A DNA stretch of 64,000 nt from Nitrospirota bacterium (GTDB lineage Bacteria > Nitrospirota > Thermodesulfovibrionia > Thermodesulfovibrionales > UBA9159), in the NCBI GenBank assembly GCA_037441365.1, contig JBBISG010000002.1:7462-71461 (forward strand), in the 5' to 3' direction. The notes below the pieces were generated by a model that did not search any database, was not told where the DNA came from, and saw only the letters and a program-made list of their open reading frames with translations. This document shows positions 694 to 57,700 of this stretch, in pieces. The position numbers were made by a program, and so were the translations under genes. The stretch's first letter is position 1. Each line of letters begins with the position of its first letter.

Positions 694-1979
694 ACAGGAC
701 ATGGAGTCCAGAAATGGGGTCCCCAGAAAGTCGCAGACTTTCTGGGGCAGAGAGTCAAGTTGCATACCCCTTAGAAATCCACCATTCCCTGTCGATGCAG
801 GGGTGTGGTGAAACCGATGGGATGTCTGGCTCGTGCGGATACCCCAAAAAATCTTCGATTTTTTGGGGACCCCATGGTCTCAGCGATTATGATATAGAGC
901 ATGGAGGCAATATATACAGGGCATCAGAAGAATTGGGCGTGCCCGAAGGCGGCATAATTGATTTCAGCGCATCCATAAACCCCCTCGGCGTTCCCTGGTC
1001 GGTGATCACCGAGGTCATGAACAATATCAGATCGCTGCGCCATTACCCTGACCCCGATGCAAAACGACTCAGGCAGGAGATCGCAAAATACCACAATGTC
1101 GAACCAGAATCAATCGTCTGCGGTAACGGCAGCACCGAATTGATATATCTTATCGTAAGGGCGCTGAGGCCTGATGCTGTTTTAATCCCGGCACCAACAT
1201 TCTCAGAATATGAAAAGGCATGCAGGATGAGTGATAATCGGGTAGTAACGGAGTACAAGCTGAAGAAAGAAGAATCCTTCGATATAAATCCTGACCGGTT
1301 TATCGAAGAATTGAAAAGACTTGCCGCATGCCACTCCTCACCAGGCACTAATATTATGGCGTTTCTCTGCAATCCCAACAACCCTACAGGCAGGCTGCTC
1401 AAAAGATCCGATATAATGAAGATCGCCGATGCCTCAAAAATGCTGAGGTGTTATCTTGTTGTTGACGAGGCATTTGTAGATTTTGCGCCGGAGGAGAGCG
1501 TAATCAAAGATGTCGGGGGAAACCCGTATCTGATCGTCCTTAGATCAATGACAAAGTTTTATGCCCTTGCCGGCCTGAGGCTCGGCTATGGGATATTCCC
1601 ATCAAGCCTTCTGAAGGTCATGCATCAGCATAAGGAACCATGGACGGTAAATACCCTTGCACAGACGGCTGGAATAACTGCAATAAATGACAATGGCTAC
1701 AGAAATGAGACATTCAGAATTATCAGGCAGGAAAAACAGTTCATGGAGAGTGGATTTAAAAAACTCGGGATAGATTATATCCCTTCATCAGTCAATTATT
1801 ATCTGATAAGATCGGGCAATGCAGAGAGGGTGATCACCTCACTCCGCAATAAAGGCATCCTTGTGCGGAAATGTTCCAATTTCTCGGGGCTTGACGAATC
1901 CTACATCAGGGTTGCAGTTAGATCCCGAAGGGATAATGCCCGTTTGCTTAAGGAGTTCTCCTTATGTCTAAAGGCATAG
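690..1979 (+). CDS. cobD: L-threonine-O-3-phosphate decarboxylase (class I/II aminotransferase fold; Salmonella CobD / CobC type). The ~65-aa N-terminal extension contains two palindromic elements
   Basis: HGGNIYRASEELGVPEGGIIDFSASINPLG, NPNNPTG and the PLP-lysine context RSMTKFYALAGLRLGY. ATGA coupling to cbiB supports the 690 start. The catalytic core begins near nt 890. Confidence 0.8.
   Translation: MNRTWSPEMGSPESRRLSGAESQVAYPLEIHHSLSMQGCGETDGMSGSCGYPKKSSIFWGPHGLSDYDIEHGGNIYRASEELGVPEGGIIDFSASINPLGVPWSVITEVMNNIRSLRHYPDPDAKRLRQEIAKYHNVEPESIVCGNGSTELIYLIVRALRPDAVLIPAPTFSEYEKACRMSDNRVVTEYKLKKEESFDINPDRFIEELKRLAACHSSPGTNIMAFLCNPNNPTGRLLKRSDIMKIADASKMLRCYLVVDEAFVDFAPEESVIKDVGGNPYLIVLRSMTKFYALAGLRLGYGIFPSSLLKVMHQHKEPWTVNTLAQTAGITAINDNGYRNETFRIIRQEKQFMESGFKKLGIDYIPSSVNYYLIRSGNAERVITSLRNKGILVRKCSNFSGLDESYIRVAVRSRRDNARLLKEFSLCLKA
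716..750 (+). repeat. P-element copy P1 (palindromic ~35-nt element), inside the cobD 5' region
   Basis: GGGGTCCCCAGAAAGTC-GCA-GACTTTCTGGGGCAG, translated as GSPESRRLSGA. Confidence 0.8.
841..873 (-). repeat. P-element copy P2, opposite orientation, inside the cobD 5' region
   Basis: ACCCCAAAAAATC-TTC-GATTTTTTGGGGACCCC, translated as YPKKSSIFWGP. Confidence 0.85.
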
Positions 1980-3394
1980 TAATAGCAGGCACACATAGCG
2001 GATGCGGGAAGACGACCATAACGCTTGGACTTATGGCTGCCTTAAAGAAAAGAGGGCTGAAGGTCCAGCCGTTCAAGGCAGGTCCTGATTTTATAGACGC
2101 CGGGCTTCACAGGATGGTGACGGGCAGACCTTCAAGGAATCTCGATTTATGGATGTGCGGTGAGGAATATGTGAAGGATTGTTTTTATAAATACTCGCAG
2201 GATGCGGATATGGCGATAATTGAAGGTGTAATGGGAATGTATGACGGCGAATGCAGCACTGCAAAACTGGCAGGACTGCTTAACCTGCCTGTGATTTTAG
2301 TTGTCGATGCCTATGGCATGGCTGAAAGCGCAGGGGCGTTAGTTCAAGGGTTTAGGGATTTGGGATTTGGGATTAGTAAAAAAGCTAACCCCCAGTCCCT
2401 AACCCCTAATCCCTTAGTGGGTGTTATCTTCAACCGTGTTGCATCGGAGAGACATTATGAAAGACTCAAACGCAGTATCCGCAATGTGAAAGTTCTCGGT
2501 TATCTGCCAAGAGACTTGAACTTCGAGATTCCTCACAGGCACCTTGGATTGACCGTTGTAGAAGAGAATCCTCTTGCTGAAGAAAATATGCAAAGGCTTG
2601 CAGACGCAGTTTTGAAGCATATTAATACTGATTTACTTTTAAATATTGCAAGCACACCCCGGCCACTCCACCCCCTTCCCCCTCCGCCCCTGCAGTACTT
2701 CACCGCTTCACCATTAATCGCAGTCGCTTACGACAGGGCATTCAGTTTTTACTACGAGGACAACCTCGATTTGCTGAGAGATGCTGGCGCTGAAATAGTA
2801 GTGTTCAGTCCTATCGCTAATGTATCGGTCCCTGCTGATGCAGATGCCCTTTACATCGGAGGGGGTTATCCTGAGCTTTATGCAAGGGAATTATCTGAAA
2901 ACAGTTCTATGCTTAAGTCTATTAATGAATGGGCAGATTCTAAAAGGCCCATTTATGCTGAATGCGGGGGGCTTATGTATCTGTCAAGGGGCATTTATGA
3001 CCCTGACGGGAACTTTTTCCCGATGGCCGGGATATTCTCCTTTGAAACACGGATGAAAAAAGAGAGGGCACATCTGGGCTACAGGGAGATACTTTTAAAA
3101 GAAGACTGCATACTCGGCAAGAAGGGCGAACGATTAAGGGGGCACGAGTTTCATTATTCGGAGATAGTTGACAACAACTATGAGTCAGGGGTTATGAGTT
3201 ATGAGTTAAAAAACGAAAAGAACTCCAGCCCCCTGAATTGTTACTCGTTACTTCACGGTAATCGTGATGAAGGATATGTATTTAAAAATACCCTTGCAAG
3301 CTATGTGCACGTCCATTTCGGGAGCAACCCATGCATTGCACAGAACTTCGTAAATTTCATATCGCAGGAGAGTAAATGGAAATGGAAAACATAA
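1964..3394 (+). CDS. cbiA: cobyrinate a,c-diamide synthase (CbiA/CobB) with in-frame hairpin-repeat insertions
   Basis: N-terminal P-loop GTHSGCGKTTITLGLMAAL..QPFKAGPDFID. C-terminal glutamine amidotransferase part has YAECGGLMYL and GHEFHYS. Confidence 0.85.
   Translation: MSKGIVIAGTHSGCGKTTITLGLMAALKKRGLKVQPFKAGPDFIDAGLHRMVTGRPSRNLDLWMCGEEYVKDCFYKYSQDADMAIIEGVMGMYDGECSTAKLAGLLNLPVILVVDAYGMAESAGALVQGFRDLGFGISKKANPQSLTPNPLVGVIFNRVASERHYERLKRSIRNVKVLGYLPRDLNFEIPHRHLGLTVVEENPLAEENMQRLADAVLKHINTDLLLNIASTPRPLHPLPPPPLQYFTASPLIAVAYDRAFSFYYEDNLDLLRDAGAEIVVFSPIANVSVPADADALYIGGGYPELYARELSENSSMLKSINEWADSKRPIYAECGGLMYLSRGIYDPDGNFFPMAGIFSFETRMKKERAHLGYREILLKEDCILGKKGERLRGHEFHYSEIVDNNYESGVMSYELKNEKNSSPLNCYSLLHGNRDEGYVFKNTLASYVHVHFGSNPCIAQNFVNFISQESKWKWKT
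2353..2413. repeat. H-element H1: hairpin with heptamer-repeat arms, in-frame in cbiA
   Basis: TAGGGAT TTGGGAT TTGGGAT TAG - loop TAAAAAAG - CTAACCC CCAGTCC CTAACCC CTAATCC C. Translated as DLGFGISKKANPQSLTPNPL. Confidence 0.8.
3179..3265. repeat. H-element H2, in-frame in cbiA
   Basis: Left arm GAGTCAG GGGTTAT GAGTTAT GAGTT. A-rich loop AAAAAACGAAAAG. The right arm contains CCCCTGA and TTACTCG TTACTTC and is imperfectly complementary. Confidence 0.6.
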
Positions 3395-4389
3395 TACTCA
3401 TAGGACACGGCAGCCCCAAAAGAAGTGCAAATAATATTGAACTTGTAGGAAGGCTCTTACATGCTGCAATCCATCCAGATTGCGAGAACGGCTGTGTAAG
3501 GGTTGCGTATCTGCAGTTTGCAGAACCTGATCTTAGAGCCGCCATTAAAGAGAGTGTTCGTGATGGGGCCAGAAGGATAATAATACATCCATACTTTCTG
3601 AGCAGTGGCATGCATGTCACAAAAGACATACCTGAGATAATAAAAGAGGCAAAGGATATGTATCCTGACGCGGAATTTATTTATACAGAGCCTCTTGGTA
3701 TCCACGAAAAATTGGTTCAGGTTATAGCGGAAAGGATTCTATCAGCAAAGGGGTCAGGACCGCAGGACATCGAGAAGAGAAGCTTTGAGATAATCTCAGA
3801 GGAACTCGATTTAAGGAACGTCCCCCCTGAACGGATGCCGATCATAAAGAGGGTGATACACGCAACTGCCGATTTTGAATTCCGCGATACACTCATTTTC
3901 CATCCCGATGCAATAAAGAGTGGCATTGAGTCGATAAGGTCTGGAAAAGATATCCTGACCGATATTGAGATGGTTAAGACCGGAATAATCAAACGGTGGC
4001 TCGAACCCTTTGGCGGAAAGGTAATATGCAATATTAATGACGAGGATGTTATAAGGCTCTCAAAGGAAACAGGAAAGACTCGCTCGGAGATTGCAGTTGA
4101 AAAAGCATTAAATGAAAACAATAGTATTGGCATCATCGCCATTGGCAATGCACCAACAGCCTTACTGAAAGTCGTTGAGATTTTAAGTTCCCACAACACT
4201 CCAATACTCCATCACTCCGTTCCCCTTGTTATCGGCGTGCCTGTCGGTTTTGTTAAGGCATTGGAATCAAAGGTACTGCTCTCGTCACAGAGATTTCCCT
4301 TTATTACAAATCTCAGCAGAAAGGGAGGGACACCGGTTGCAGTCGCAATCGTTAATGCATTATTAAAGATGGCAAAGGAGGAAGCATGA
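3376..4389 (+). CDS. fusion protein: small CbiX-type sirohydrochlorin cobaltochelatase (N-terminal ~125 aa) plus cobalt-precorrin-8 methylmutase CbiC/CobH (C-terminal ~210 aa)
   Basis: N part: ILIGHGSPKRS...RIIIHPYFLSSGMHVTKDIPEII. C part: IIKRVIHATADFEF...IIAIGNAPTALL...VIGVPVGFV...RKGGTPVAVAIVNALL. Confidence 0.75.
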   Translation: MEMENIILIGHGSPKRSANNIELVGRLLHAAIHPDCENGCVRVAYLQFAEPDLRAAIKESVRDGARRIIIHPYFLSSGMHVTKDIPEIIKEAKDMYPDAEFIYTEPLGIHEKLVQVIAERILSAKGSGPQDIEKRSFEIISEELDLRNVPPERMPIIKRVIHATADFEFRDTLIFHPDAIKSGIESIRSGKDILTDIEMVKTGIIKRWLEPFGGKVICNINDEDVIRLSKETGKTRSEIAVEKALNENNSIGIIAIGNAPTALLKVVEILSSHNTPILHHSVPLVIGVPVGFVKALESKVLLSSQRFPFITNLSRKGGTPVAVAIVNALLKMAKEEA

Positions 4390-5144
4390 GAATTAAAGTT
4401 TCAAAGTTCAAGGTTCAAAGTATCTGTACTGCTCTGTTGCTTTTACTTCCTGTCTGTGAGGCCCATGCGATGCACATATCAGAGGGGATACTGCCCTTCG
4501 ACTGGGCAGCGTTGTGGACTGTAATTGCAATCCCATTTGTAGCATACGGACTATATAAGCTAAAGAAGCTCTCTGCCATTGATCTGTCTTTCAAACCCCT
4601 TGTGGGATTGATGGCAGCAGTCGTCTTTATCATCTCCTGCATGCCTATACCTGTGCCGACTGCAGGCACATGCTCACATCCATGCGGAACCGGGATATCA
4701 GGGATACTCGTGGGTCCTGCAATAAGCATATTGATAACTGCTGTTGCCCTTCTAATTCAGGCGCTCTTTCTTGCTCACGGTGGTCTCAGCACATGGGGAG
4801 CGGACATAGTATCAATGGGCGTGATCGGCTCATTTGCAGGATATCTTACCTTCAGGGGATTGAGGGCGTTAAAGGCTAATCTCTGGATTGCAGGCTTCAT
4901 GGCAGGTCTCTTTGCAGACTGGGCAACATATCTGACAACATCTGTTGAACTTGCCTCAGGCATAAAAGGTGATTCGCCGTTCATGCCTCTTTTCTGGAAG
5001 ATACTTATCGCCTTTATACCGACACAGCTTCCATTAGGAATCCTTGAAGGCGCAATGACAGCAGGCATGGTTGTCCTGCTTTATAAGAAAAGACCTGACC
5101 TTCTTGTGAAGATGCGGGTATTAAAGCCAAAGGAGGCGATATGA
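4386..5144 (+). CDS. cbiM: cobalt ECF-type transporter substrate component CbiM
   Basis: Signal peptide ending AHA is followed by MHISEGILP, the conserved mature N-terminus of CbiM. Multiple TM segments. ATGA overlap with the upstream gene. Confidence 0.85.
   Translation: MRIKVSKFKVQSICTALLLLLPVCEAHAMHISEGILPFDWAALWTVIAIPFVAYGLYKLKKLSAIDLSFKPLVGLMAAVVFIISCMPIPVPTAGTCSHPCGTGISGILVGPAISILITAVALLIQALFLAHGGLSTWGADIVSMGVIGSFAGYLTFRGLRALKANLWIAGFMAGLFADWATYLTTSVELASGIKGDSPFMPLFWKILIAFIPTQLPLGILEGAMTAGMVVLLYKKRPDLLVKMRVLKPKEAI
4395..4422. repeat. H-type tandem heptamers (single arm) at the cbiM 5' end
   Basis: AAAGTTT CAAAGTT CAAGGTT CAAAGTA, encoding KVSKFKVQS of the signal-peptide n-region. Confidence 0.6.
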
Positions 5145-5473
5145 AGTTAAAAGTTGAAAGTTTAAAATTTAAAGTTAAAAGTTATGGCGTTATATTTTTG
5201 TTTATTTTTTCATTGTTAGCTGTTCACTGTTCACTTGCAACCGCTGCTGACAAATGGCCTGGTGTTGATGAGTCGGTTGTAGAGAAATACGCAAAAGAGC
5301 ATGGCAGAGAGGCGATGACGCCCTTAATAAACACTGACCAGGGAGACCTCCTTCTCTTTGTCTTCCTGCTTGCAGGCTCTGTTGGCGGTTTTGTAGCAGG
5401 ATACTACTGGAGGGAACTGATAGTCAAAGGACAGCGAGATGATAGTTGCGAAAAACAAAAGATAAAGACATAA
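5141..5473 (+). CDS. cbiN: small membrane component CbiN-like
   Basis: 110 aa with two hydrophobic segments. The loop ...GVDESVVEKYAKEHGREAMTPLINTDQGDLLLFVFLLAGSVGGFVAGYY resembles CbiN. Sits between cbiM and cbiQ. ATGA overlap with cbiM. Confidence 0.65.
   Translation: MKLKVESLKFKVKSYGVIFLFIFSLLAVHCSLATAADKWPGVDESVVEKYAKEHGREAMTPLINTDQGDLLLFVFLLAGSVGGFVAGYYWRELIVKGQRDDSCEKQKIKT
5144..5187. repeat. H-type tandem heptamers (single arm) at the cbiN 5' end
   Basis: GTTAAAA GTTGAAA GTTTAAA ATTTAAA GTTAAAA GTTATGG, encoding KLKVESLKFKVKSYG. Confidence 0.65.
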
Positions 5474-5483
5474 AGGGATAAAG

Positions 5484-6236
5484 GTGGAATTATTTTCAGA
5501 CTACTTTAAAAAGGATCATCTACTTTCAAAGGTTGATGCAAGGCTAAAGCTTATTGTCAGCCTCACCCTTCTGGGAATGATTCTAAGCTATAAGGGATTT
5601 ACCCTTCCTCTGCTTGTGACACTGCTCTGTTTGCTGCTCTGTTTAAGGATGCGGATACCCTTAAGGGTCTTTGCCCTCAGGTTTTCAGAGCCGTTGTTCA
5701 TTATCTCGGTGATCCTTATTTTAAAGGTCTTATTCTCAGGGGAGGACATCCTGTTTTCCATCAGCATATTCGGCGCCAACATTGTTGGACATAAAGACGG
5801 GTTACGGGATGGACTCATGATAGGAAGCAGAATAATAGGCGCAGTATCGGTAGTTGCAGTAATGGGATTTTCCACGCCCTTCACAGAGATTATGGCAGCC
5901 CTTTCATGGATGAGGGTTCCGAAGGGGTTCATAGAGATACTCATGTTTGCCTACCGGTATATCTTTGTCCTTCTTGAAGATGCAATGGTAATTTACAATG
6001 CACAGAAAAATCGTCTCGGTTATTCCAGCATAAAAAAGGGTTTAAACTCTTTCGGAACACTTACCGGCTCTCTTATTATCAAGGCATTTGAGCAAAGCCA
6101 GAATATTACAACTGCGATGATTCAAAGGGGATACGAAGGAAATATGCCAATGCTGAAACATAGACCATTCAGGCCTTCAGAAATTGCCGTTTCAGTCCTA
6201 TTAATAATTGTGCTGGGGTTTGTATGGAAAATATAA
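5484..6236 (+). CDS. cbiQ: ECF transporter transmembrane (T) component CbiQ
   Basis: 250 aa polytopic protein. The C-terminal part ...AYRYIFVLLEDAMVIYNAQKNRLGY... is typical of CbiQ/EcfT. Position between cbiN and cbiO. Confidence 0.8.
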   Translation: MELFSDYFKKDHLLSKVDARLKLIVSLTLLGMILSYKGFTLPLLVTLLCLLLCLRMRIPLRVFALRFSEPLFIISVILILKVLFSGEDILFSISIFGANIVGHKDGLRDGLMIGSRIIGAVSVVAVMGFSTPFTEIMAALSWMRVPKGFIEILMFAYRYIFVLLEDAMVIYNAQKNRLGYSSIKKGLNSFGTLTGSLIIKAFEQSQNITTAMIQRGYEGNMPMLKHRPFRPSEIAVSVLLIIVLGFVWKI

Positions 6237-7168
6237 CAAGAACAGACAACACAGCCCCACCTACCCATCCCTCTCCCTCGAGGGGGGAGGGTAAGGGAAA
6301 GGGTGAAAGTCCGGGGTCTGCTGTCCGGGCTCTGGATTCTGTTAGGTTAGCCGTTAAAATAAATTCATTCAAATATCCTGATGGGACTCGTGCGCTGTCT
6401 GATATCACGTTTGATGTATCGCATGGCGAATTTATCGGTATACTCGGCTCAAATGGTTCTGGAAAGACAACACTGCTTAAAGTAATGGACGGCCTGATGA
6501 AAGATTTTGAAGGCAATGTTTATCTTGACGGAGTTGACATAAAAAAACTTTCTCCAAAGGAGATTTACAAAAAGGTCGGACTCGTCTTCCAAAACCCCGA
6601 TGACCAGCTCTTTGCCTCAACGGTCTTTGAGGATGTTGCATTCGGGCCGAGAAATATGGGATTTTCTGAAAGTGATGTAGTAAGCCGTGTATGGAATGCC
6701 CTGAGCGCTGTTGAAATGGAGGCCCACTCTAAAAAATCCATCCATAACCTGAGTTTTGGACAGAAGAAAAGGGTCTGCATTGCAGGCCTTCTGGCAATGG
6801 GGCATGAAATATTACTGCTTGACGAGCCGACTGCTGGATTAGACCCGATGGGGGAGTATAAGATGATGAACCTCCTCACAAAATTAAACAAAGACAAGGG
6901 GGTAACCACTGTTATGGCAACGCACAGCGTTGACCTTGTGCCCTTATTTCTGGACAGGCTTTATATCTTGAGCAGAGGGGGCATTGTGAGGGGTGGATAC
7001 CCGGAGGATGTCTTTCAGGCGCCAGAGGAAATGGAGAATGTAAAACTCAGGCTTCCCCAGATCGCAGAGCTCGTATGGAGGCTGAAACATGAAGACAATA
7101 TGCCCTTTGAAAGGATTCCGCTCACCGTGGGTGAGGCGAGAAGGGAGATTGTAAGGTTATATGCGTAA
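6224..7168 (+). CDS. cbiO: cobalt ECF transporter ATPase CbiO, with ~40-aa repeat-derived N-terminal extension
   Basis: Walker A GSNGSGKTT, signature LSFGQKKR, Walker B ILLLDEPTAGLD. The 13-nt overlap with cbiQ supports the ATG at 6224. Confidence 0.85.
   Translation: MENITRTDNTAPPTHPSPSRGEGKGKGESPGSAVRALDSVRLAVKINSFKYPDGTRALSDITFDVSHGEFIGILGSNGSGKTTLLKVMDGLMKDFEGNVYLDGVDIKKLSPKEIYKKVGLVFQNPDDQLFASTVFEDVAFGPRNMGFSESDVVSRVWNALSAVEMEAHSKKSIHNLSFGQKKRVCIAGLLAMGHEILLLDEPTAGLDPMGEYKMMNLLTKLNKDKGVTTVMATHSVDLVPLFLDRLYILSRGGIVRGGYPEDVFQAPEEMENVKLRLPQIAELVWRLKHEDNMPFERIPLTVGEARREIVRLYA
6255..6309. repeat. H-element H5 at the cbiO 5' end
   Basis: CACCTAC CCATCCC TCTCCCT C-GA-GGGGGGA GGGTAAG GGAAAGG GTGAAAG. 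Translated as PPTHPSPSRGEGKGKGES. Confidence 0.75.
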
Positions 7169-7679
7169 AGGTTATATACAGGTATATACAGGTAATGGAA
7201 AAGGAAAGACCACTGCAGCGGTAGGGCTTGCTGTAAGGGCAGCAGGTGCTGGTCTCAGGGTATTATTTGCTCAGTTTATAAAAAAGAGAAGGTGCAGCGA
7301 ACACAAGGCCCTTGAGAGATTCAGCGACCTCATTACCGTCAGGCAGTATGGAACGGGTTTTATAAGGGGAAGGAGGCCCTCAAGGGCAGCAAGGTCTTTA
7401 TCAGAGAAAGGACTTGAGGATGCAAGAGAGGAGGTGGTCTCAGGACAGTACGACATCGTTATCCTTGACGAGATAAATGTGGCAATTAATCGCGGGCTTA
7501 TCGATCTTGAAGATGTCATCTCGATGCTGGACAGCAAACCTCCGAATGTTGAGCTTGTTCTTACAGGCAGATATGCCCACAGCAGGATCATAAGAAAGGC
7601 TGACCTTGTTACAGAGATGAAGAAGGTCAAACATTATATGGATAAAGGTGTAAAGGCAAGAATAGGAATTGAAAAGTGA
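7161..7679 (+). CDS. cobO: cob(I)yrinic acid a,c-diamide adenosyltransferase (CobO/CobA/BtuR type)
   Basis: GYIQVYTGNGKGKTTAAVGLAVRAAGAGLRVLFAQFIK and DIVILDEINVAI. Confidence 0.85.
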   Translation: MRKGYIQVYTGNGKGKTTAAVGLAVRAAGAGLRVLFAQFIKKRRCSEHKALERFSDLITVRQYGTGFIRGRRPSRAARSLSEKGLEDAREEVVSGQYDIVILDEINVAINRGLIDLEDVISMLDSKPPNVELVLTGRYAHSRIIRKADLVTEMKKVKHYMDKGVKARIGIEK

Positions 7680-8463
7680 GAGGTCAAAAGTGAGGAAGAT
7701 ATATCTCATCGGTATAGGTCCGGGTGATCCGCAGTATCTGACGCAGCAGGCAGTAGAGATAATGAGAAATGTCGATGTGTTTTTTATCCTTGAAAAGGGG
7801 TCTGAGAAGAACAGAGAGCTTGTGAGGATCAGAAAGGGGATCCTTGAAAGATATCTGCCTGACAGGAATTACAGGATTGTCACGGCGAAGATCCCTGATA
7901 GAAGTAGAGGCGGCAAGGAGTTTGAGATATATAGGGGAAGGGTTGACTCATGGCGTAAACAGAAGGCTGAAATCCTGGCCGGCCTGATCAAGGATGGGAT
8001 GAATGACGGAGAGACTGCTGCCATACTGATCTGGGGTGACCCATCTCTTTATGACGGACATATAGAGATATTAGATTATATACTCAGACAGAAAAAGATA
8101 GATCTTGAATTTGAGGTCATACCGGGTATAACGAGCATACAGGTGCTTACTGCCAGGCATAAGATACCGCTGAATCAGATAGGTGAAGGCATTGTGATAA
8201 CTACATCGAGGGGTCTCAAGGAACTCCTCCCCTCAGAGGTCAGCAATAATGTAGTCTTACTTGATAACTATCTGACCTACAGAAATTTCAGGGAAACAGA
8301 TCTCTATATATACTGGGGGGCCTATCTCGGCAGCCCTGATGAGATCATCCTTTCAGGAAAAGTGAATGATATCCTTGATGACCTTATAAGGACAAGAAAT
8401 GAGGCAAAAAAGAAAAAGGGCTGGATCATGGAGACATACATCCTGAGGAGGCATAGGGAGTGA
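7669..8463 (+). CDS. cobF: precorrin-6A synthase (deacetylating) CobF-like tetrapyrrole methylase. The start may be the GTG at 7690
   Basis: RKIYLIGIGPGDP...VDVFFILEKG...WGDPSLYD...VIPGITS...IYWGAYLGSPDEIILSGKV...GWIMETYILRR matches my recollection of Pseudomonas denitrificans CobF over its full length. Confidence 0.7.
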   Translation: MKSERSKVRKIYLIGIGPGDPQYLTQQAVEIMRNVDVFFILEKGSEKNRELVRIRKGILERYLPDRNYRIVTAKIPDRSRGGKEFEIYRGRVDSWRKQKAEILAGLIKDGMNDGETAAILIWGDPSLYDGHIEILDYILRQKKIDLEFEVIPGITSIQVLTARHKIPLNQIGEGIVITTSRGLKELLPSEVSNNVVLLDNYLTYRNFRETDLYIYWGAYLGSPDEIILSGKVNDILDDLIRTRNEAKKKKGWIMETYILRRHRE

Positions 8464-8476
8464 AGGAGAGGCTGAT

Positions 8477-9388
8477 GTGCTGAGGATAGGGCATCTATCG
8501 ACTTTTTATCATACATCCTTGTTGTTAATGGCCGAGGGAATTGACGATAGACTCGGGACTGTGGTGGAATGGAAACTCTTTGGAACAGGACCTGACATCA
8601 TACGGGCATTTGAACGGGATGAGATAGACATTGCTTATATCGGGCTTCCACCGGTGGTGATCGGGATAGACAGAGGGCTCAGGATTAAATGTATAGCAGG
8701 GGGGCATGTAGAAGGGACTGTAATTGCCGGGGCTGACAGTGTAAGGGGTTTCCCTGATGTGCAGGATCTCGGAGAATTATTACGTCAATTCAGAGGCAAG
8801 AGGATCGGGGTGCCCGGTAGGGGTTCTATCCATGATGTGATAGTGAGAGACTGTATCGATAGCTATAGCCTTGCCGGTGATATAGGGGTAATAAATTTCC
8901 CATGGGCTGATCTCATTGTAGAGGCTGTGAGAAAAGGCGAGGTCTCTATCGCCGCAGGCACGCCAAATCTATCCGTAGCATTAAGGCGGTTTCTTGGCAG
9001 AAGGATTCTATGGCCGCCAGAGAGATTGTGGCCGGACAATCCGAGCTATGGGATAGCGGTGAAGGAGGAGTTTCTCAGGGAATCAGAACTCATAAAAAAA
9101 TTTCTTCTCCTCCATGAAGATGAAACATCTTTTTTGAAAAGAAGGCCCGGGGATGCATCAAAGGTCATAGCGTCAGTCGTGGGGATAGTGGATGAGGACT
9201 TTGTCCTTGAGACCCTCATGGTCTCACCAAAATATTGTGCCTCACTGCCAGAGGGATACATCTCATCAACAATGAAACTTGTGAAGGCCATGAAAAGACT
9301 CGGTTATATAAAACAGGAACTGGCAGCACACGAAATCTTTTATACCGATATAATCAGCGAGATTCACCCCGGCAGAGCTCATTACTGA
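8477..9388 (+). CDS. periplasmic-binding-protein-fold protein (NMT1/THI5 / SsuA-TauA-like); no obvious signal peptide
   Basis: LRIGHLSTFYHTS...GPDIIRAFERDEIDIAYIGLPPVVIG is the type 2 SBP pattern. GTG start. Function not assignable. Confidence 0.45.
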   Translation: MLRIGHLSTFYHTSLLLMAEGIDDRLGTVVEWKLFGTGPDIIRAFERDEIDIAYIGLPPVVIGIDRGLRIKCIAGGHVEGTVIAGADSVRGFPDVQDLGELLRQFRGKRIGVPGRGSIHDVIVRDCIDSYSLAGDIGVINFPWADLIVEAVRKGEVSIAAGTPNLSVALRRFLGRRILWPPERLWPDNPSYGIAVKEEFLRESELIKKFLLLHEDETSFLKRRPGDASKVIASVVGIVDEDFVLETLMVSPKYCASLPEGYISSTMKLVKAMKRLGYIKQELAAHEIFYTDIISEIHPGRAHY

Positions 9389-10484
9389 AGATCTCCTTTA
9401 TTTCTACAGGTGTGAGGGGGATATTGGGGACATCTCTGTTCCCGGGCAGTGCAAGGACATGTATGAAGCGAGGCCCCGGCGACCTTTTATTTATAGCCTC
9501 TATAAGGTCCCTTTTCGTTGATACCTTTACGGTATTAGAAATTCCAAAACCCCTCGCAACCATCTCAAGGTCTGTACATCTCGCTGTGAGTGTAGGCTGG
9601 TCGCCGGTAGAACCATAAGATCCATTATCAATTGCGACGACACTGAGATTTCCCGGCCTGAGATAGGCCATAGTGCCGAGAGTGCCCGGGTTCATGAGAA
9701 GGCTTCCATCTCCATCAATGACAAGGACATCTCTTTTTGTAAAGAGAGAGATGCCAAGACCAATGGGGGTTGCCATACCCATACTTCCGAGCATGTAGAA
9801 GTTTGAAGGCTGGTGTTTTATATAAAAGAGCTCCTTCGACGGAATGCCGAGATTAGAGACCACTATCTTTTGCCCAAGATAGGGTGCCAGTGTCTCTATG
9901 AGCTCGAAACGCGTGTATCTCGGCACAGGTATTTTCGACTGCTTGATCCTGGGTCCCCTGAATCTTCCATCCCTCGGTCTTTTTAGCTGCTTCTTGATAC
10001 CCCATAGTGCTGGACTCATAAGAAAGACGGATATTTTATGACCTTTATAGACATTCTGCAATTCCTCCCTCACGAGTCTTAAATCACTGTCTTCCCTGAG
10101 GATCAGATATTCAATACCGCATGCCTCAAGTATTCCTAAAAGTGCCCGCCCCATGGGTATCTGGGCAGGTATCCTCTCATTGTCCATCCCACGCCAGCTC
10201 ACGAATATACTCAAAGGTAAATCATAGGTCTTCGTCAGCGACATAATGGCATTTAACATGTTTCCAAGGCCAGAGCTCTGGACAAACATCGCCGGCCTCT
10301 TCCCACAGAGGGCAGCACCTGCACAGATGCCCACGCCTTCCTCTTCCCTTGTCAGGGGAATATGTAAGAAATTGGATTCGATGAGTGAGAGGAGAACATT
10401 GATCTTTTCACACGGAAGTGTTGCGATGGGATCTATCGATGATGCCCTGAGGATCTCTATCATCTGTTCCTCACAGGTTTGCAC
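9354..10484 (-). CDS. fused alpha/beta TPP-dependent decarboxylase of the sulfopyruvate / phosphonopyruvate decarboxylase family (ComDE-like)
   Basis: IDPIATLPCEKINVLLSLI...REEEGVGICAGAALCGKRPAMFVQSSGLGN in the N half. TPP motif region GSMGMATPIGLGI...VIDGDGSLLMNPG in the C half. 376 aa. Confidence 0.7.
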   Translation of the reverse strand: MQTCEEQMIEILRASSIDPIATLPCEKINVLLSLIESNFLHIPLTREEEGVGICAGAALCGKRPAMFVQSSGLGNMLNAIMSLTKTYDLPLSIFVSWRGMDNERIPAQIPMGRALLGILEACGIEYLILREDSDLRLVREELQNVYKGHKISVFLMSPALWGIKKQLKRPRDGRFRGPRIKQSKIPVPRYTRFELIETLAPYLGQKIVVSNLGIPSKELFYIKHQPSNFYMLGSMGMATPIGLGISLFTKRDVLVIDGDGSLLMNPGTLGTMAYLRPGNLSVVAIDNGSYGSTGDQPTLTARCTDLEMVARGFGISNTVKVSTKRDLIEAINKRSPGPRFIHVLALPGNRDVPNIPLTPVEIKEIFSNELCRGESR

Positions 10485-39539: not shown

Positions 39540-39558
39540 TACCCCCCTATCTTAACGT

Positions 39559-39796: not shown

Positions 39797-39807
39797 TTCT
39801 TTCTCCA

Positions 39808-46984: not shown

Positions 46985-49357
46985 ATGCATATCTTCATAT
47001 CATTCCTATCAGGGATAGTCCTCTTCTATACCTCTCATCTGTTCCCTGTCCTGACAGGCATCGTGTTTCTTTTGTCGGCATTGTTCTTACTGTTCAGAAA
47101 GAGATACATCCTTGTGCCGATCATAATCATTGGCTTTCTCTATGCCTTCTTCAGATACGACCCTCCAGTAGAGCCATCTTCTCTAAGCAGCAGGGAGGTC
47201 ATTGTAGATTGTGTTGTGAAAAGCTCACCCTCTGAATTATCATCAGGGCGGTTTGTCAATGAGTCTGATATCCTGTCAGCAGTGGATGTCAGCACAGGCG
47301 AAACCATCGACCCTCTCAGGGGTAAAGAGATGAATCTCATTTCTGATTATGGACTGAAACCTGATCTTCGCTACGAGATTTTAGCAAAGATAGGGAATGA
47401 CAGGGAGAGACACAATCCAGGTATGATGGGGGGAGGCAGGCTTTATGCCTATCTTGAGGACGTAAGAGGGGCAGAGGAGATCAAAGGGAATCCCCTGAAT
47501 AAATGGTTTCAGCAAAATAGAGATAAACTGAATCAATATCTCAAAACTCACTTTGATAGCGATTCTGCTGCCCTGCTGTCTGCCATTACTACAGGCGAGA
47601 GGTCTGTGATGAGCGAAGACCTCAAAGACGCCTTCAGCACCACCGGCCTTGCCCACCTCCTGAGCATCTCAGGCACACACTTCGGGTTATTCTCGATGCT
47701 CATATTCGGGATATTCAGGATTGTTATCGGCTCCGTGCCGTACCGATTTCTTCAGAGGCTGACGATTTATCTCACACCATCTCAGGCATCTGCGATAGTG
47801 TCCCTTCCATTTATGTTCTTCTATCTCATAATCTCAGGGGCGAGCATCCCTGCGCTGAGGTCATTCATAATGATAAACATATTCCTCCTCGGCCTCCTCA
47901 TAGGCAGGAAGGGATTCTGGCTTAATTCTCTTTTGTTCGCTGCATTCTTAATATGCCTGTGGGAGCCCTCTGCAATCCTGAACATATCCTTTCAGCTCTC
48001 ATTCCTTGCAGTACTGTTCATAGGCCTCTGCATAAAAGAAGGGGGTCCCCAGAAGGGCTCAGAACCTTCGGGATGCTGGCAGAGATCCATCCATCGCGTT
48101 GCCGGCATGTTTAAAAATACACTGCTCATGAGCCTTTCAGCATCCCTCGGGACAACTCCTCTTGTGGCGTATTATTTTCATTATTTCTCAATAATCTCTC
48201 CTGCTGCAAACATCTTTATAACACCATTTATAGGCTTCATCCTTGTACCCCTGTCGCTCCTTTCGGCATTTGTATTCATGCTGTCAGGGCATTACCCGCT
48301 TCAGGGCCTCATTGCAGCGATAACCGAGACCGCCATACGGGGCGTAAGGCTCTTTGCATCCATACCGGCAGCAGATATCAAGATGCCTTCCTTTCCACTT
48401 ATAGCAGTCATCATCTTTTATGCCGGCGTTATGATATACATCGTAAAGGGACTGGGGATAATGCTGAGATACGTCTCAGCCTCGGTCTCGATCCTGGTCT
48501 TTTCAGGCATCATCGCCCTGCCGATGATATCGTGGAAAGACGATATGGCTGTCACATATCTCGATGTGGGACAGGGCGATGCAGCGGTCATAGAGGCATC
48601 AGGAAAGATAATCGCCATAGATACAGGAAGGACAGGGAAAGAGCTCACCTCCTATCTGAGATATCTTGGTAAAAGAAGCATTGATGCCCTTGTAATAACA
48701 CATGCTGATACTGACCATTCTGGAGGCACATCTCATGTGTCGAAGAGATTGAGGGTCAAAGAGATATGGGACAACGGACTGCTCGTCTATCCTGATGGGC
48801 CTGACGGGTTTAAAAAGACCTACATCAGGCACCTCGAAAGGGGTGATGTGCTCGAGACCGAAGGGCTCACTATCACAGTCCTCCATCCATATAAAGGATT
48901 TTATACCTTTTCTGACAGCGAGGCTGCTGCCGAAAACAACGACTCCCTCGTGTTGAAGGTAAGGGGGAAAAAAAGCTCCTTTTTGTTCACTGCTGACGCA
49001 GCAGATGAGGCAGAGTGGGATATGGTTCACCTCGGCAGATGGCTTAAGAGCGATGTCATCAAGGTATCCCATCACGGCAGCCGCACATCAACGACAGAGG
49101 ATTTTTTAGGCGCAGTATCACCAGACATAGGGGTAATAAGCGTTGGGAGGTATAATACATACGGCTACCCGCACAGGGACGCGTTAGAGAGACTCAGGGG
49201 TGTAAGGATTTACAGGACAGACAGGGACGGGGCGATCAAGATCACAGAGACCTCTGAGGGCCTTGAGGTGAAGACATACAGGGACTTCGAGTTCGAGAAG
49301 GCGAGAGACCTTGCAGGAGAATGGGGGAATATAAGGAGGCTCTTTATAAGGTGGTGA
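46985..49357 (+). CDS. comEC: DNA internalization-related competence protein ComEC/Rec2 (membrane channel plus metallo-beta-lactamase domain)
   Basis: Polytopic competence domain (TGLAHLLSISGTHFGL). C-terminal MBL domain (YLDVGQGDAAVIE...ALVITHADTDHSGG...KVSHHGS). Confidence 0.85.
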   Translation: MHIFISFLSGIVLFYTSHLFPVLTGIVFLLSALFLLFRKRYILVPIIIIGFLYAFFRYDPPVEPSSLSSREVIVDCVVKSSPSELSSGRFVNESDILSAVDVSTGETIDPLRGKEMNLISDYGLKPDLRYEILAKIGNDRERHNPGMMGGGRLYAYLEDVRGAEEIKGNPLNKWFQQNRDKLNQYLKTHFDSDSAALLSAITTGERSVMSEDLKDAFSTTGLAHLLSISGTHFGLFSMLIFGIFRIVIGSVPYRFLQRLTIYLTPSQASAIVSLPFMFFYLIISGASIPALRSFIMINIFLLGLLIGRKGFWLNSLLFAAFLICLWEPSAILNISFQLSFLAVLFIGLCIKEGGPQKGSEPSGCWQRSIHRVAGMFKNTLLMSLSASLGTTPLVAYYFHYFSIISPAANIFITPFIGFILVPLSLLSAFVFMLSGHYPLQGLIAAITETAIRGVRLFASIPAADIKMPSFPLIAVIIFYAGVMIYIVKGLGIMLRYVSASVSILVFSGIIALPMISWKDDMAVTYLDVGQGDAAVIEASGKIIAIDTGRTGKELTSYLRYLGKRSIDALVITHADTDHSGGTSHVSKRLRVKEIWDNGLLVYPDGPDGFKKTYIRHLERGDVLETEGLTITVLHPYKGFYTFSDSEAAAENNDSLVLKVRGKKSSFLFTADAADEAEWDMVHLGRWLKSDVIKVSHHGSRTSTTEDFLGAVSPDIGVISVGRYNTYGYPHRDALERLRGVRIYRTDRDGAIKITETSEGLEVKTYRDFEFEKARDLAGEWGNIRRLFIRW
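48041..48080 (+). repeat. degenerate P-element P8 inside comEC
   Basis: GGGGGTCCCCAGAAGGGCTCAGAACCTTCGGGATGCTGGC, translated as GGPQKGSEPSGCW. Confidence 0.55.
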
Positions 49358-53624: not shown

Positions 53625-54542
53625 ATGTGTGAAAATGGAGATGTGGATAGTATATCTATACTCATTAGGTGCAAGAATGAAGAAAAATTCATAGGTCTAA
53701 CACTCGAGAAGATATTCGAACAAGAGATCAATACGCCATTTGAAGTGATCGTAATAGATTCTGGTTCAACTGATAGAACTATTGAGATAGTGAAAAATTT
53801 CGATGTTAAATTATATCAAATAGCACCAGAAACATTTACTTTTGGCTATGCCCTTAATTATGGAATAGAACGAGCAAAAGGAACAATAATCGCTAATATT
53901 TCTGCTCATTGTATTCCTCGCAACAACCAGTGGCTCTCTGAACTGGTCAGGCCCATTGTGGAAGGTAACGCAGGTGCAACATATGGAAGGCAGATCCCCG
54001 TTGAAGGGGTAAATCCATTCGAGGAGGTTTCCTTATACAAGCACTTTCCTGAAGATGAGAAAAAAAAAGGCAGGGTACCATTTTCAAATGCAGCTTGTGC
54101 CTTTCTGAAAGAGATGTGGATTGAGAGGAGATTTGACGAGGAGATGCCCAGTTGGGAAGATTACCTATGGTATCTATTAATGAAAGACAGATACAGATTT
54201 AAATACTGCCCGGATTCAATTGTATATCACTCCCATGCCTTTTCCATGGAATGGATTAAAAGGCGCGCCTTTATAGATGGCCAGGCATTCAAATTGATCA
54301 AAAAGAAATATGGCATAGACCTTCTTGATGGTTTATATCCAACCTTTAGGGAAAAGGTGAAATGGGGTCCCCAAAAAATCGCAAGATTTTTGGGGGTGGC
54401 ACTAGGAATATTTATAAACGATGTAAAACACCATTTAAGGCTCTTTAAAAAAAATGGTTACTTGAGGCAGATATTCTTGATACCCATTGTGAGATTGCAT
54501 GTCTATAAGGCATACTGGAAGGGATACAGGTCCGTAAGGTAA
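53625..54542 (+). CDS. family-2 glycosyltransferase (paralogous to 51324..52172) carrying an in-frame palindromic element near the C-terminus
   Basis: ISILIRCKNEEKFIGLTLEKIFEQE...EVIVIDSGSTDRT...WEDYLW. Confidence 0.7.
   Translation: MCENGDVDSISILIRCKNEEKFIGLTLEKIFEQEINTPFEVIVIDSGSTDRTIEIVKNFDVKLYQIAPETFTFGYALNYGIERAKGTIIANISAHCIPRNNQWLSELVRPIVEGNAGATYGRQIPVEGVNPFEEVSLYKHFPEDEKKKGRVPFSNAACAFLKEMWIERRFDEEMPSWEDYLWYLLMKDRYRFKYCPDSIVYHSHAFSMEWIKRRAFIDGQAFKLIKKKYGIDLLDGLYPTFREKVKWGPQKIARFLGVALGIFINDVKHHLRLFKKNGYLRQIFLIPIVRLHVYKAYWKGYRSVR
54364..54400 (+). repeat. P-element copy P9 inside the fourth glycosyltransferase gene
   Basis: GGGGTCCCCAAAAAATCGCAAGATTTTTGGGGGTGGC, translated as WGPQKIARFLGV. 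Confidence 0.85.
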
Positions 54543-54623: not shown

Positions 54624-54629
54624 TTAACC

Positions 54630-54666
54630 GGGGTTCCCAAAAAGTCAAAGACTTTTTGGGGTGCCC
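54630..54666 (+). repeat. P-element copy P10, intergenic, adjacent to hairpin H10
   Basis: GGGGTTCCCAAAAAGTC-AAA-GACTTTTTGGGGTGCCC. Confidence 0.9.
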
Positions 54667-54716
54667 TCTTCCCATTTGTCTGAGTCCCCCCGGGAATAGC
54701 GTCATGTATTGAATCT

Positions 54717-57700
54717 TCACCCCTTACACCACTTTCTTGCATTCTGAAACATCTTGAGCCAGGGCGATGCCCTGAGCGTCTTCCAGTCATCGGGCATCCA
54801 CGGCCACTGCCATTTCAAGAATGTCCTCTCTGGATGGGGCATGATAGCGAGGTGTCTTCCGTCAGGCGAGCAAAGGGCCGCAATGCCGAGCGGAGAGCCG
54901 TTTGGATTGAAGGGATAGGATTCTGTAATCCCCCCGCTGTCATCAACGTATCTCACCGGAGCAAGGCCCATCTCTATCACCCTGCCTTTGACCGATTCGT
55001 CGGGGAAATATGCCCTCCCCTCACCATGCGCCACCCAGATGCCAAGGGTCGAGCCCTCCATGCCCTTAAGCATAATGGATGGGCTCGGTAAAATCTTTAC
55101 TGTGGCGAATCTCGATTCAAAGCGGCCTGACCTGTTCTGGATAAACCTCGGCTGCAATCTGTCCTCTATTCCTGTCCACGGCACCCAGCCCAGGAGGGCC
55201 ATCAGCTGGCATCCATTGCATACACCGAGGCTGAAGGTCTCATCCCTGCTGTAGAATCTTTCGAACTGCTCATATATTCTCTTATTGAACCTTATTACCC
55301 CTGCCCACCCCTTTGCCGAATCGAGGACATCTGCATAGCTGAACCCTCCAACAAAGGCGATGCCCTTAAAATCATCGAGGGATATATCCCCTCTGAGAAG
55401 GTCAGTCATTGTGACATCCCATGTCTCGAATCCTGCTTGATAAAAGGCTCCCGCCATCTCCCTGTCGCCATTACTGCCCTCTTCCCTTATGATCGCAACC
55501 CTCGGCTTTGTCCTTCGAGTGATGATTTCGGGTGCTGTTGGCTCGGGCGTGAATGTAAGCCTATATGATGGCCCCTTCCTGTCAAAGATATTCTTCCACT
55601 CCTCATCAACACAGTCAGGGTCTGCCTGCAATCTGTCGAGGCGGTAGCTCGTCTCCTCCCACGATGCCCTCAGATGCTGCATCTCTTCATCTAAAACCGT
55701 AATGCGCGAAGAAGGGCACCCCAAAAAATCTGCGATTTTTTGGGGACCCCGGTTGTGATGCGTGATAAGATTTATTTTTATTCTTTTTTCTATCAGTGTC
55801 CTGCCGATGAACTGATAAGGGACAGAGAAGCCTCTGACAATAGAAATTATCTCGTCTTCTTTCTCTGGCATGTATTCCATCACTAACCCCGATTCCTCGG
55901 AAAACAGTATTCGTATTGTCTCCTCCCCTGACTCCTGACTCCTGACTCCTGACTCCAAACTTATCTCCAATCCACAGTTTCCAGAAAACGCCATCTCCAG
56001 GAGTGCAACGATCAGTCCGCCGTCACTTATGTCGTGCCCGGAGAGGATGAGGTCATCTTCAATGAGTCTCTGGACTGCTAAGAATGTGCGCCTCAGTAAC
56101 TGTGGGTCTTCTATATCTGGAGACTCATCGCCAATCTGGTTGTAAACATGGGCGAGTGCAGAGCCTCCGAGTCTGTATCTGCCTTTCCCGAGGTCGATAT
56201 ACAGGAGCCTGCTATGGCCCGGCCTCTTTATATCAGGGGTGACGACCTTTGTTATGTCAGGACATGTGGCATAGGCTGAGATAACGAGTGCACCAGGGGC
56301 CTTAACAACCTCCCTGTCACCATTAACCCCCTGCACCATGGCTGCCATAGAGAGGCTATCCTTTCCACCATCTACCGCTATGCCGAGCTCTATCATAATG
56401 TCCCTCAAGGCTTCGGCTGCATCATAAAGGGCGGCACCCTCGCCGGGCAGCTTCGCTGCCCACATCCAGTTAGCAGAACACCTGATGTCCTCAAGTCTGC
56501 TCACCTTTGCCCAGAGGATATTTGTGATGGCCTCGGCCACGGCCATCCGCGCCATTGCTGCTGGGCTTATGAGGCCCTTGATAGGCTGCTCTCCTATAGA
56601 TATCGCTGCACCTGTAAAGACTCCATCTGAAGGGAAATGGCTTTGAGAAATGACCGCCACATCAGAGACAGTAAGCTGTAGAGGGCCGACGCACTGCTGC
56701 CTTGCTATCAGACCCGTCACAGACCTGTCGACCTTATTCGTGAGAAACCGTTTTGAGCCGACGGACACAAGCCTCAAGACCCTCTCAAGGGCATCCTTTA
56801 CATTCAGGGCATCAGGCAGTCTTAGCGGTTCAAGCTGAGGGGGGATTCTATCGAGCCTGAAGGTCTTCTGCGGCATCTCGCCAAGGACCTTTCTGAGGTC
56901 GAGATTGACAGGGGTGCTTCCATCACTTTCATCATAGAGGACTATATAGCCGTCACCTGTTATATGGCCGACTGTAGCAGAGGGAACCTTCTCCCTCCTG
57001 CACAACTCTGTGAACATCTCCGCACTTTCAGGTCTTATCAGAAGGGCATTGGATTCCTGATACTCAGCGCCCCATATCTCAAGGACAGAAAGGGTGTTGT
57101 CTCCAAGAGGTATCTTTCTCACCTCTATCTTTGCTCCAGCAGGGTATATTATCTCCTTTATGACATTGCAATTGCCGCCCGCACCCTGGTCATGGATGCT
57201 TATTATCGGGTTTTCGTCACCGAGCTCTACGCATGCACGGATGACCCTGTTGAGCTTTTGCTCCATCTCAGCATCGCCCCGCTGCACTGCATTGAAGTCG
57301 AGTTCCTCTGACAGCTCACCAGCAAGCACAGATGACGCAGATCCGCCGCCTATACCGATTCTATATGCAGGACCGCCCACCTTAACAACGAGCATCCCCT
57401 TGTCAGGCATCCCCTTTTCTGTATGTCTTTCATCCATCTGGCCTACACCGCCTGTGAACATTATAGGCTTTATCCATTCCCTCCTCTGGCCATTGGGAAG
57501 CCTCATGCCAAAAGACCTTGTAAAGCCCTGTATTACAGGCTCCCCAAATTTATTCCCATAGTCTGATGCCCCGTTGCTTGATTCTATCTCTATCTGGAGG
57601 GGGGATGCAAGGTTTCCTGGGTAACCAAAGGAGCCGTCTTCCCACGGGAGTCTGTAGCCGGGTATCCTGAGGTTGCCGACACAGTATGCAGCAGTGCCTG

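Follow-up and report, generated by a model that had tools for sequence, protein, structure and literature searches.

In a 64,000-nt stretch of DNA from a Nitrospirota bacterium (contig JBBISG010000002.1; we call the whole stretch the window), whose closest named relatives are Thermodesulfovibrionales, a hairpin of 39-42 nt recurs both within and between genes. We think it likely that this hairpin belongs to a very small, non-autonomous, and recently active family of mobile DNA, which behaves like the Rickettsia palindromic elements (RPEs) and has the size of the repetitive extragenic palindromic (REP) sequences. The family had been noticed by a reading of the sequence alone, which proposed RPE-like insertion in frame into conserved genes. 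That proposal held up: exact empty sites for four copies (both copies in cobD, the copy in rpsB, and the copy in purL) are present in a relative that is 98-99% identical.

The window contains seven full copies of the hairpin, as scored by a covariance model (E < 1e-10) that was trained on 71 copies and run over the window without filters. The matches start at 714, 835, 39758, 43382, 54362, 54628, and 55712, and the full copies span 714-755, 837-875, 39758-39798, 43382-43423, 54362-54403, 54628-54669, and 55712-55753. Only about 0.3 matches to the full-copy pattern would be expected by chance. Similarly, a 17-mer half-site (GGGGTCCCCAAAAAATC, with up to 3 mismatches) has 14 matches in the window versus 0.32 expected, and a 23-mer core (CCAAAAAATC-N3-GATTTTTTGG) has 6 matches versus 0.00 expected. 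Five of the seven full copies lie inside open reading frames (ORFs).

The close relative is represented by Logan contigs L083, L085, and L157 of SRR24079482, which are unpolished assemblies with 0.6-1.9% mismatches to the window. Two of the copies that it lacks are in cobD (threonine-phosphate decarboxylase, ORF 690-1979). Copy 1 (714-755, plus strand; E = 2.5e-14) is a 42-nt block, ATGGGGTCCCCAGAAAGTCGCAGACTTTCTGGGGCAGAGAGT, that is read as MGSPESRRLSGAES within an N-terminal extension, and copy 2 (837-875, minus strand) is a 39-nt block whose reverse complement is ATGGGGTCCCCAAAAAATCGAAGATTTTTTGGGGTATCC and which is read as YPKKSSIFWGPHG. When L083 is aligned to window positions 1-9855, there are 115 mismatches, and no indel in these 9.8 kb is larger than the two cobD blocks. 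L083 lacks copy 1: its exact empty site, TCCAGAA^CAAGTTG, shows no base duplicated at the junction, and the CobD homolog encoded by this contig (P0121, 92% identical) is 27 residues shorter and lacks the 14 amino acids of copy 1. Copy 2 is missing, at the same site, from both L083 and an outgroup (contig L084 from JGI 3300009943); the empty site is GGCTCGTGC^GGTCTCAG, with a 2-nt ambiguity in placement.

The other two missing copies are in rpsB and purL. The rpsB copy (43382-43423, minus strand) is a 42-nt block, with reverse complement ACCGGGGTCCCCAAAAAGTCTTTGACTTTTTGGGGTGCCCTC, that adds a 14-residue peptide to the C-terminal tail of ribosomal protein S2 (42641-43498). L085, the contig of the closest ortholog (P0392), lacks this block at the empty site GAGCAGGAA^GAGGCAGAAG, where placement is ambiguous by 4 nt (GAGG), and the block is the sole internal indel in the 1.3 kb that align. 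The peptide is not found in P0392, in P0393, or in about 40 further S2 proteins from Thermodesulfovibrionales that we examined. (These orthologs came from a search of 90% clusters, as the representatives of 50% clusters were uninformative: the C-terminal tails are hypervariable.) The purL copy (55712-55753, minus strand, in the minus-strand gene 54717-58799; E < 1e-10 like the others) is a 42-nt block with reverse complement ACCGGGGTCCCCAAAAAATCGCAGATTTTTTGGGGTGCCCTT that adds 14 amino acids (the NRGPQKIADFLGCP region). In L157 there is a clean 42-nt gap instead, with empty site GCGCGAAG^TGTGATGCG and no duplicated bases, and the 14-residue peptide is missing from 45 of 45 aligned PurL orthologs.

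All four gaps in the relative are clean and in frame, and they are backed at the protein level by other orthologs. The lengths of the blocks (42 and 39 nt in cobD, 42 nt in rpsB, and 42 nt in purL) are all divisible by three, and each block reads open in the frame of its host gene. Across the roughly 16 kb that can be compared, all four gains are in the window's lineage, with none in the relative. The alignments show at least four insertions in the window's lineage after its split from a relative that is just 1-2% divergent. The sequence-only reading had held that the peptides are insertions and had named peptides shared with orthologs as the finding that would speak against this; we found the opposite in S2, in PurL, and, for the second cobD copy, in the outgroup. 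Because they are missing both from the close relative and from distant orthologs, the second cobD copy and the rpsB and purL copies are recent insertions and not ancestral peptides. For cobD copy 1, the corresponding region of the outgroup L084 contains a different copy of the hairpin, split by another palindrome, and so gives no polarity; an ancestral peptide is strongly disfavoured here.

The start of cobD is a hot spot for repeats: the split copy in L084 (5470-5700) is interrupted by a palindrome of the form GCCGAGCACTCAGCC...GGCTGAGTGCTCGG, and the CobD orthologs P0122, P0135, and P0148 have N-terminal extensions that consist of other peptides derived from repeats (PLNPPYLKG..., SPLKGEGK...). 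The relative also has a full hairpin copy of its own (L083 3658-3698), at the N-terminal end of cbiB, in a position shortly before the first base of the window. In a PurL ortholog, P0028, the loop that corresponds to window 55712-55753 contains a different insert of 18 residues (PGLHPLSIGTGAG...). This loop seems to accept insertions repeatedly.

Some other copies in the window are older. The copy in a glycosyltransferase of family 2 (GT2; gene 53625-54542, copy at 54362-54403 on the plus strand, in the C-terminal part, E = 9e-11) has a 1-nt indel and is read as GPQKIARFLG. It is common to the window, L156, and L157, all of which encode proteins of 305 amino acids. We found no GT2 orthologs without the copy, and a scan of metagenomes for close relatives of this GT2 gave only matches at 38% identity or less. 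A further copy (54628-54669, plus strand, E = 1.6e-14) is intergenic, with the GT2 gene on one side and the 3' end of purL on the other, and consists of the 42-nt ACC...TGCCCTC unit that rpsB and purL also have; it is present in L157, minus 8 nt from within one arm. As these two copies are shared with the relative, they are older. The remaining full copy, at 39758-39798 on the minus strand (E = 6e-13), is also intergenic. It lies 12 nt past the stop codon of a sigma-54 response regulator (39808-41208, minus strand), and its stem is nearly perfect across 17-19 bp.

There are also three relics within genes. One, at 29410-29443 on the minus strand (E = 0.0015), is in the 4Fe-4S subunit adjoining fdhA (ORF 29188-30294); the tip of the hairpin has been deleted and the remainder is read as RYTPKNFLGSPT. 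The other two are degraded copies on the plus strand, one in a cbiE/T-like gene (35693-35732 in ORF 35424-36863, read as MGSPERCRRPSVAE) and one in comEC (48042-48084 in 46985-49357, read as GGPQKGSEPSGCWQR). Although both score poorly with the covariance model, they carry both ends of cobD copy 1, GGGGTCCCC...GGCAGAG (3 matches in the window versus 0.00 expected), so we consider them degraded members of the copy-1 subfamily. The cbiE/T relic has an 18-nt gap inside the copy in relative L158. The protein with the comEC relic has the same length as a member of its 90% cluster, so this copy is older as well.

At least 11 copies or relics had been claimed, and we can support ten of them: the seven full copies and these three relics. 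The exception is an intergenic relic at 42581, which is weak (E = 0.16) and doubtful; the other two copies that had been proposed to be intergenic, at 39761 and 54630, correspond to the full copies at 39758-39798 and 54628-54669. All eight copies that had been placed inside ORFs are indeed in open frames of the named genes. The host proteins are the aminotransferase-fold CobD, ribosomal protein S2, the GT2 glycosyltransferase, the large PurL, ComEC, the 4Fe-4S subunit adjoining a molybdopterin oxidoreductase, and the CbiE/T-like methylase. We rejected two further candidates. An occurrence of GGGGTCCCC at 44383 is conserved coding sequence of pyrH, and a half-site at 31597 has no second arm and is identical in L158.

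The full copies in the window fit the pattern GGGGT-CCCCAAAAA(A/G)TC-N3-GA(T/C)TTTTTGGGG-T(G/A). Stacking about 100 copies, from the window and from the loci that we describe below, gives a consensus of 5'-GGGGT CCCCAAAAA(A/G)TC NNA GA(T/C)TTTTTGGGG T(G/A)-3'. In other words, the unit is a 12-bp A/T-rich stem with a G/C cap and a 3-nt loop, preceded by a conserved GGGGT. The element had been described as a palindrome, but it is not symmetric: the left edge is sharp (each G of GGGGT is kept in 88-93 of 101 copies, and the T in 84), while the right edge fades, with only T(G/A) conserved. The right arm also had to be corrected, from GGGGCACCC to GGGGTGCCC or GGGGACCCC. Beyond GGGGT, 2-3 bases at the 5' side and 5-8 bases at the 3' side travel with the hairpin, which yields the blocks of 39-42 nt. 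Stem position 10 covaries with its partner (50 A-T, 46 G-C, and 5 other; the search pattern admitted all four combinations), and cobD copy 1 has a second compensated pair (AGAAAGTC/GACTTTCT). As DNA, the hairpin has a predicted free energy of between -11.6 and -14.5 kcal/mol, and as RNA of about -23.6 kcal/mol, with z-scores of -3.7 to -5.

The bases outside the palindrome define two subfamilies in the window. Subfamily 1 (ACC-GGGGT...GGGG-TGCCCT(T/C)) includes the rpsB, purL, and intergenic 54628 copies, which are alike over the full 42 nt, including the ACC and the TGCCCTY. Subfamily 2 (AT-GGGGT..., or AT...CAGAGAGT) includes both cobD copies and the GT2 copy, with relics in cbiE/T and comEC. 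Because these non-palindromic flanks are inherited, the subfamilies show that new copies were made from existing ones. The copies in the window are single, not in inverted pairs as in the REP doublets known as REPINs or in bacterial interspersed mosaic elements (BIMEs); elsewhere there are a few tandem arrangements (L044, L064, and L073).

The hairpin sequence is free of stop codons in four to six of the six frames, and it encodes peptides rich in G, P, and K, of three types: PQK[IV]xDFLG, PKKSxxFWG, and PK[SN]xR[FL]FG. It had been proposed that orientation and frame vary while the ORF stays open, and this generalizes beyond the window: among the 41 copies in long ORFs at the loci that we listed, all six classes of orientation and frame occur, 4-8 times each. 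The 42-nt ACC unit has the same length between genes as within them, so frame neutrality comes with the unit itself and not from later trimming. The older copies (in GT2, comEC, cbiE/T, and the 4Fe-4S subunit) have drifted and are still open. Also, there is no in-frame start codon between cobD copy 2 and the conserved HGGN motif, so any production of the enzyme must include translation of copy 2. For PurL residues 860-1360, AlphaFold2 (mean predicted local distance difference test score, or pLDDT, of 88.6) models the insert as a loop with pLDDT 54-71, and the flanking beta strands have pLDDT 90-97. This one model predicts that the inserted peptide occupies a surface or loop position that is compatible with the fold. 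The other genic sites include a C-terminal tail (S2), an N-terminal extension (CobD), and a linker between the CbiX and CbiC domains (in L036, where the window's ortholog is empty at that site).

To look beyond the window, we scanned one genome per species for the exact pattern and listed at least 81 loci, so the following counts should not be read as frequencies: at least 56 loci in Nitrospirota, including the cultured strain Thermodesulfovibrio sp. N1, at least 13 in Bacillota, at least 5 in Chloroflexota, at least 3 in Aquificales, and at least 4 in other groups. The search pattern did not demand GGGGT, and yet 7 of the 13 Bacillota copies listed have exactly this flank, so these are the same motif and not chance terminators. 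Hairpins with the GGGGT flank occur in Clostridia, Chloroflexota, and Aquificales as well as in Nitrospirota. In other Nitrospirota, in-frame hosts that we verified with Pfam include MutS (domain V), RecJ (DHH domain), LigA, Mfd (two copies), CobA-HemD, and a NuoN-like membrane subunit; the cultured strain N1 is among the genomes with such in-frame copies. We found no copies in viral contigs (by exact pattern) or in plasmids (by blastn).

In a census of 104 copies, 48% are spanned by short ORFs only, versus 18% of random sites, and 23% are deep within long ORFs, versus 54% of random positions; another 29% lie close to an end of a long ORF. Roughly half of all copies are intergenic. Copies are thus enriched outside genes, and those within genes are a minority that is tolerated, at sites that are not the favoured ones.

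In some genomes, the hairpin is part of something larger. In metagenome-assembled genomes (MAGs) of gut Clostridia (L012, L042, L045, L071, L073, and L080), it forms the 3' end of a longer, roughly 130-nt repeat that comprises three GC-rich hairpins and immediately precedes the ribosome-binding sites of genes that are unrelated to one another (yabP-like, dxs, and LysR-type). Several Nitrospirota MAGs have the hairpin within genome-specific composite repeats of 100-300 nt (L033, L060, L069, and L078; L010, L032, and L043; L007, L017, L024, and L044; L019, L041, and L047). One of these composite families adjoins a 5S rRNA gene (in L033), and L044 and L064 contain tandem arrays.

How might the hairpin move? 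The copies are at unrelated sites, and the repeats at the four dated junctions are 0, 2, 4, and 0 nt (cobD-1, cobD-2, rpsB, and purL), so there is no consistent target-site duplication. We considered whether GGGGT could be a 5-bp target duplication, as a direct repeat, and rejected this because the empty sites do not contain GGGGT. A conserved GGGGT that adjoins the stem without pairing, asymmetric ends, and the absence of a duplication are features that resemble REPs and their REP-associated tyrosine transposases (RAYTs) and also the insertion sequences (ISs) of the IS200/IS605 family. By this analogy, the most plausible candidate for a mobilising enzyme would be an HUH/Y1 nuclease, IS200/IS605-like or RAYT-like, that is encoded elsewhere and acts in trans on the folded single-stranded hairpin. 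Insertions into loops, linkers, and tails of proteins would be tolerated and kept, and others would be purged. The remaining copies would gather between genes and decay via internal deletions, while either correction inside the hairpin or selection on its recognition might keep the stems perfect.

Several points weigh against this account. A regular expression for the HUH...Y motif gave no candidate in the window or the related loci (about 660 kb), although this search was crude and low-powered and covered a tiny and biased fraction of the genomes. The sequence-only reading had likewise seen no transposase in the window. The left flanks of the dated insertions (AGAA, GACC, CCTC, and CACA) share no tetranucleotide, whereas IS200/IS605 elements normally have such a target; this and the motif search weigh against that enzyme in particular. 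A route through replication or repair, such as template switching, in place of a transposase would also fit the 0-4 nt of microhomology at the junctions. The conservation of 32 nt across phyla could reflect a host factor that selects the sequence. And translation of the inserts is inferred from the conservation of frame. In favour of a non-autonomous element, no neighbouring gene recurs among the 81 or more loci listed, so association does not point to a transposase.

Among rival readings, the peptides might be ancestral segments of the host proteins, or the copies might be artefacts of assembling a metagenome. We give almost no credence to either idea. It is true that the GT2, comEC, and intergenic 54628 copies are common to the closest relatives and that in every lineage the purL site falls in a variable loop, but ancestral segments would not be missing at four exact sites in a relative that is 98-99% identical, nor would those of cobD-2, rpsB, and purL also be missing from more distant orthologs, and we do not see why unrelated proteins would have ancestral segments that correspond to the same DNA read in three frames and both orientations. 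As for artefacts, these repeats do disturb assembly. Two Logan contigs of SRR11582170 that match the window at 99.9% identity break off within copies, L001 at its start (43395) and L156 at its end (54646), so the element does fragment short-read assemblies. But the element is also present in the independently assembled L156, L157, and L083, in at least 56 loci of many Nitrospirota genomes, one of them from a cultured isolate, and, in other phyla, on contigs of 250-1000 kb, and artefacts would not be expected to preserve reading frames or to have compensatory changes in their stems. It also seems very improbable that the inserts are genuine but untranslated, because ribosomes bypass them (as in yeast mitochondria or gene 60 of phage T4) or because they are removed from the mRNA. 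The inserts are short hairpins within coding regions, and the RNA hairpin is stable (about -23.6 kcal/mol), which would fit this idea. On the other hand, bypassing imposes no constraint on length or on stop codons, and yet the four dated inserts are all multiples of three (42, 39, 42, and 42 nt) in open host frames, and the drifted old copies are still open.

Alternatively, the hairpin might be a functional site that spread because hosts selected it, perhaps for binding a protein, for organizing the nucleoid, or, as RNA, for processing or pausing. The 32-nt sequence and its GGGGT flank are kept across at least four phyla, the Clostridial copies are often directly upstream of the ribosome-binding sites of unrelated genes, copies are enriched between genes and at gene ends, and stems are kept perfect, all of which would fit. 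Nevertheless, we consider this unlikely, as the gains are recent, strain-specific, and scattered, even into essential coding regions; all orientations and frames are used; copies decay quickly via deletion; and there is no matching family in Rfam. By analogy to what has been proposed for REPs, a function could be secondary and arise by exaptation. Another idea, which we consider quite unlikely, is that the element is an ordinary miniature inverted-repeat transposable element (MITE) that is moved by a DDE transposase, with the arms as its terminal inverted repeats. The arms are inverted repeats of 12-17 bp, the element is dispersed and non-autonomous, and in some genomes the hairpin lies inside repeats of 100-300 nt. 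But the junction repeats of 0, 2, 4, and 0 nt are not a duplication of fixed length, the ends are asymmetric, a block of 39-42 nt with 3 nt between its arms is far below the known sizes of MITEs, and a parent IS with these ends was not seen at the 81 or more loci or in plasmids or viral contigs.

Within the reading that we prefer, that of a small mobile family, a bolder claim is conceivable: that the hairpin represents an unrecognised class of minimal mobile elements. Such a class would consist of 42-nt, frame-neutral, and largely stop-free hairpins that are active now, have crossed between phyla (Nitrospirota, Clostridia, Chloroflexota, and Aquificales), make no target duplication, move by a mechanism unlike that of DDE MITEs or of target-specific IS200/IS605 elements, and have a length and a codon content that are adapted to colonise coding sequence. 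We offer this tentatively, and would sooner bet against it. If it is true, then bacterial proteins would quite generally acquire loop insertions from these elements.

That palindromic repeats colonise essential genes in frame has been treated so far as a peculiarity of Rickettsia, so it matters that RPE-like behaviour is now seen in free-living anaerobes, with four aspects that were not on offer in Rickettsia. To our knowledge, a unit of 39-42 nt is close to the smallest mobile DNA. Because there are pairs of filled and empty sites at 1-2% divergence, the boundaries and rates of insertion can be measured directly, and because a cultured strain (Thermodesulfovibrio sp. N1) carries the element, its mobility and translation are open to experiment. 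The range across phyla points to a widespread mobilising activity. There are practical consequences too: these repeats break assemblies, lengthen or create ORFs (as in the N-terminal extensions of CobD), and add peptides of 13-14 residues to conserved proteins in annotation databases.

The window has other repeats and rearrangements. A second and unrelated palindromic family, in which GGGATT(A/C/G) heptamers face (N)AATCCC heptamers, is found at 2348-2414 and 39558-39620. The former is in frame in a cbiA/cobB-like ORF (1964-3394) and is read as FRDLGFGISKKANPQSLTPNPL; the corresponding segment of L083 and L084 differs and is 7 amino acids shorter. The latter lies between genes; in its place L158 has about 318 nt, which code for the greater part of a 143-amino-acid HTH_28 protein. 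A 4.5-kb block (26905-31438) that encodes an fdhA-like molybdopterin oxidoreductase and 4Fe-4S and FAD/NAD-binding subunits is missing from L158, which has 32 nt between the flanking genes. Synteny with L158 and L159 stops at 39737-39760, about 20 nt from the intergenic hairpin at 39758-39798, and beyond this break the window has a sigma-54 two-component pair where the relatives have RecO and other genes. This hairpin may mark the junction of a rearrangement.

The sequence-only reading could not name a described family, and the element appears to be undescribed. Rfam has no match at the gathering score for the window and 19 loci, or at a permissive threshold (E <= 5) for a Clostridial copy, and full-text searches of the literature with sequence strings and keywords gave only chance matches to primers and no description of the element. 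The likeness to RPEs is one of behaviour. There are ten families of RPEs, of about 100-150 bp, which are often in frame in metabolic genes (PMC10969869). Like the hairpin, they are palindromic and non-autonomous, insert in frame into unrelated housekeeping genes where the peptide is apparently tolerated, and also occur between genes (PMC10969869). But RPEs are found only in Rickettsia, while the hairpin is three to four times shorter, has another sequence and a Thermodesulfovibrionales host, and, judged by the published description of RPEs, is not homologous to them; it is read in all three frames and both orientations; it occurs in Nitrospirota, Clostridia, Chloroflexota, and Aquificales; and about half of its copies are intergenic, as for REPs. 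REPs, by definition, seldom overlap coding regions (PMC12306157). REPs and the hairpin are both imperfect palindromes of 20-40 nt in many copies, with a conserved unpaired 5' motif by the stem, and both are enriched between genes and at gene ends and have neither a target-site duplication nor terminal repeats beyond the hairpin. The motif differs (GTAG in enterobacterial REPs versus GGGGT here, in an analogous position), about a quarter to half of the copies of the hairpin are inside ORFs, most are single and not in REPIN pairs, and no RAYT gene was found by a motif screen of the roughly 660 kb of available sequence.

The IS200/IS605 elements have asymmetric ends, make no target-site duplication, and are recognised by their hairpins, as we suppose is the case here. 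They insert 3' of a fixed tetra- or pentanucleotide. In contrast, the four dated insertions share no such 4-5-nt target, and no TnpA or TnpB was seen near any copy. MITEs such as ERIC, BOX, Nezha, and QMITE1 are also non-autonomous and are occasionally intragenic and translated, but they are 50-500 bp or more, with terminal inverted repeats and a target duplication, whereas the hairpin is shorter and makes no duplication. Thus, the element misses defining features of each of these: the length and host of RPEs; the extragenic location, GTAG, and pairing of REPs; the duplication of MITEs; and the fixed target of IS200/IS605 elements. That palindromic mobile repeats can insert in frame was known already. 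What is new is this element, its minimal and frame-neutral unit, its recent activity, and its range across phyla.

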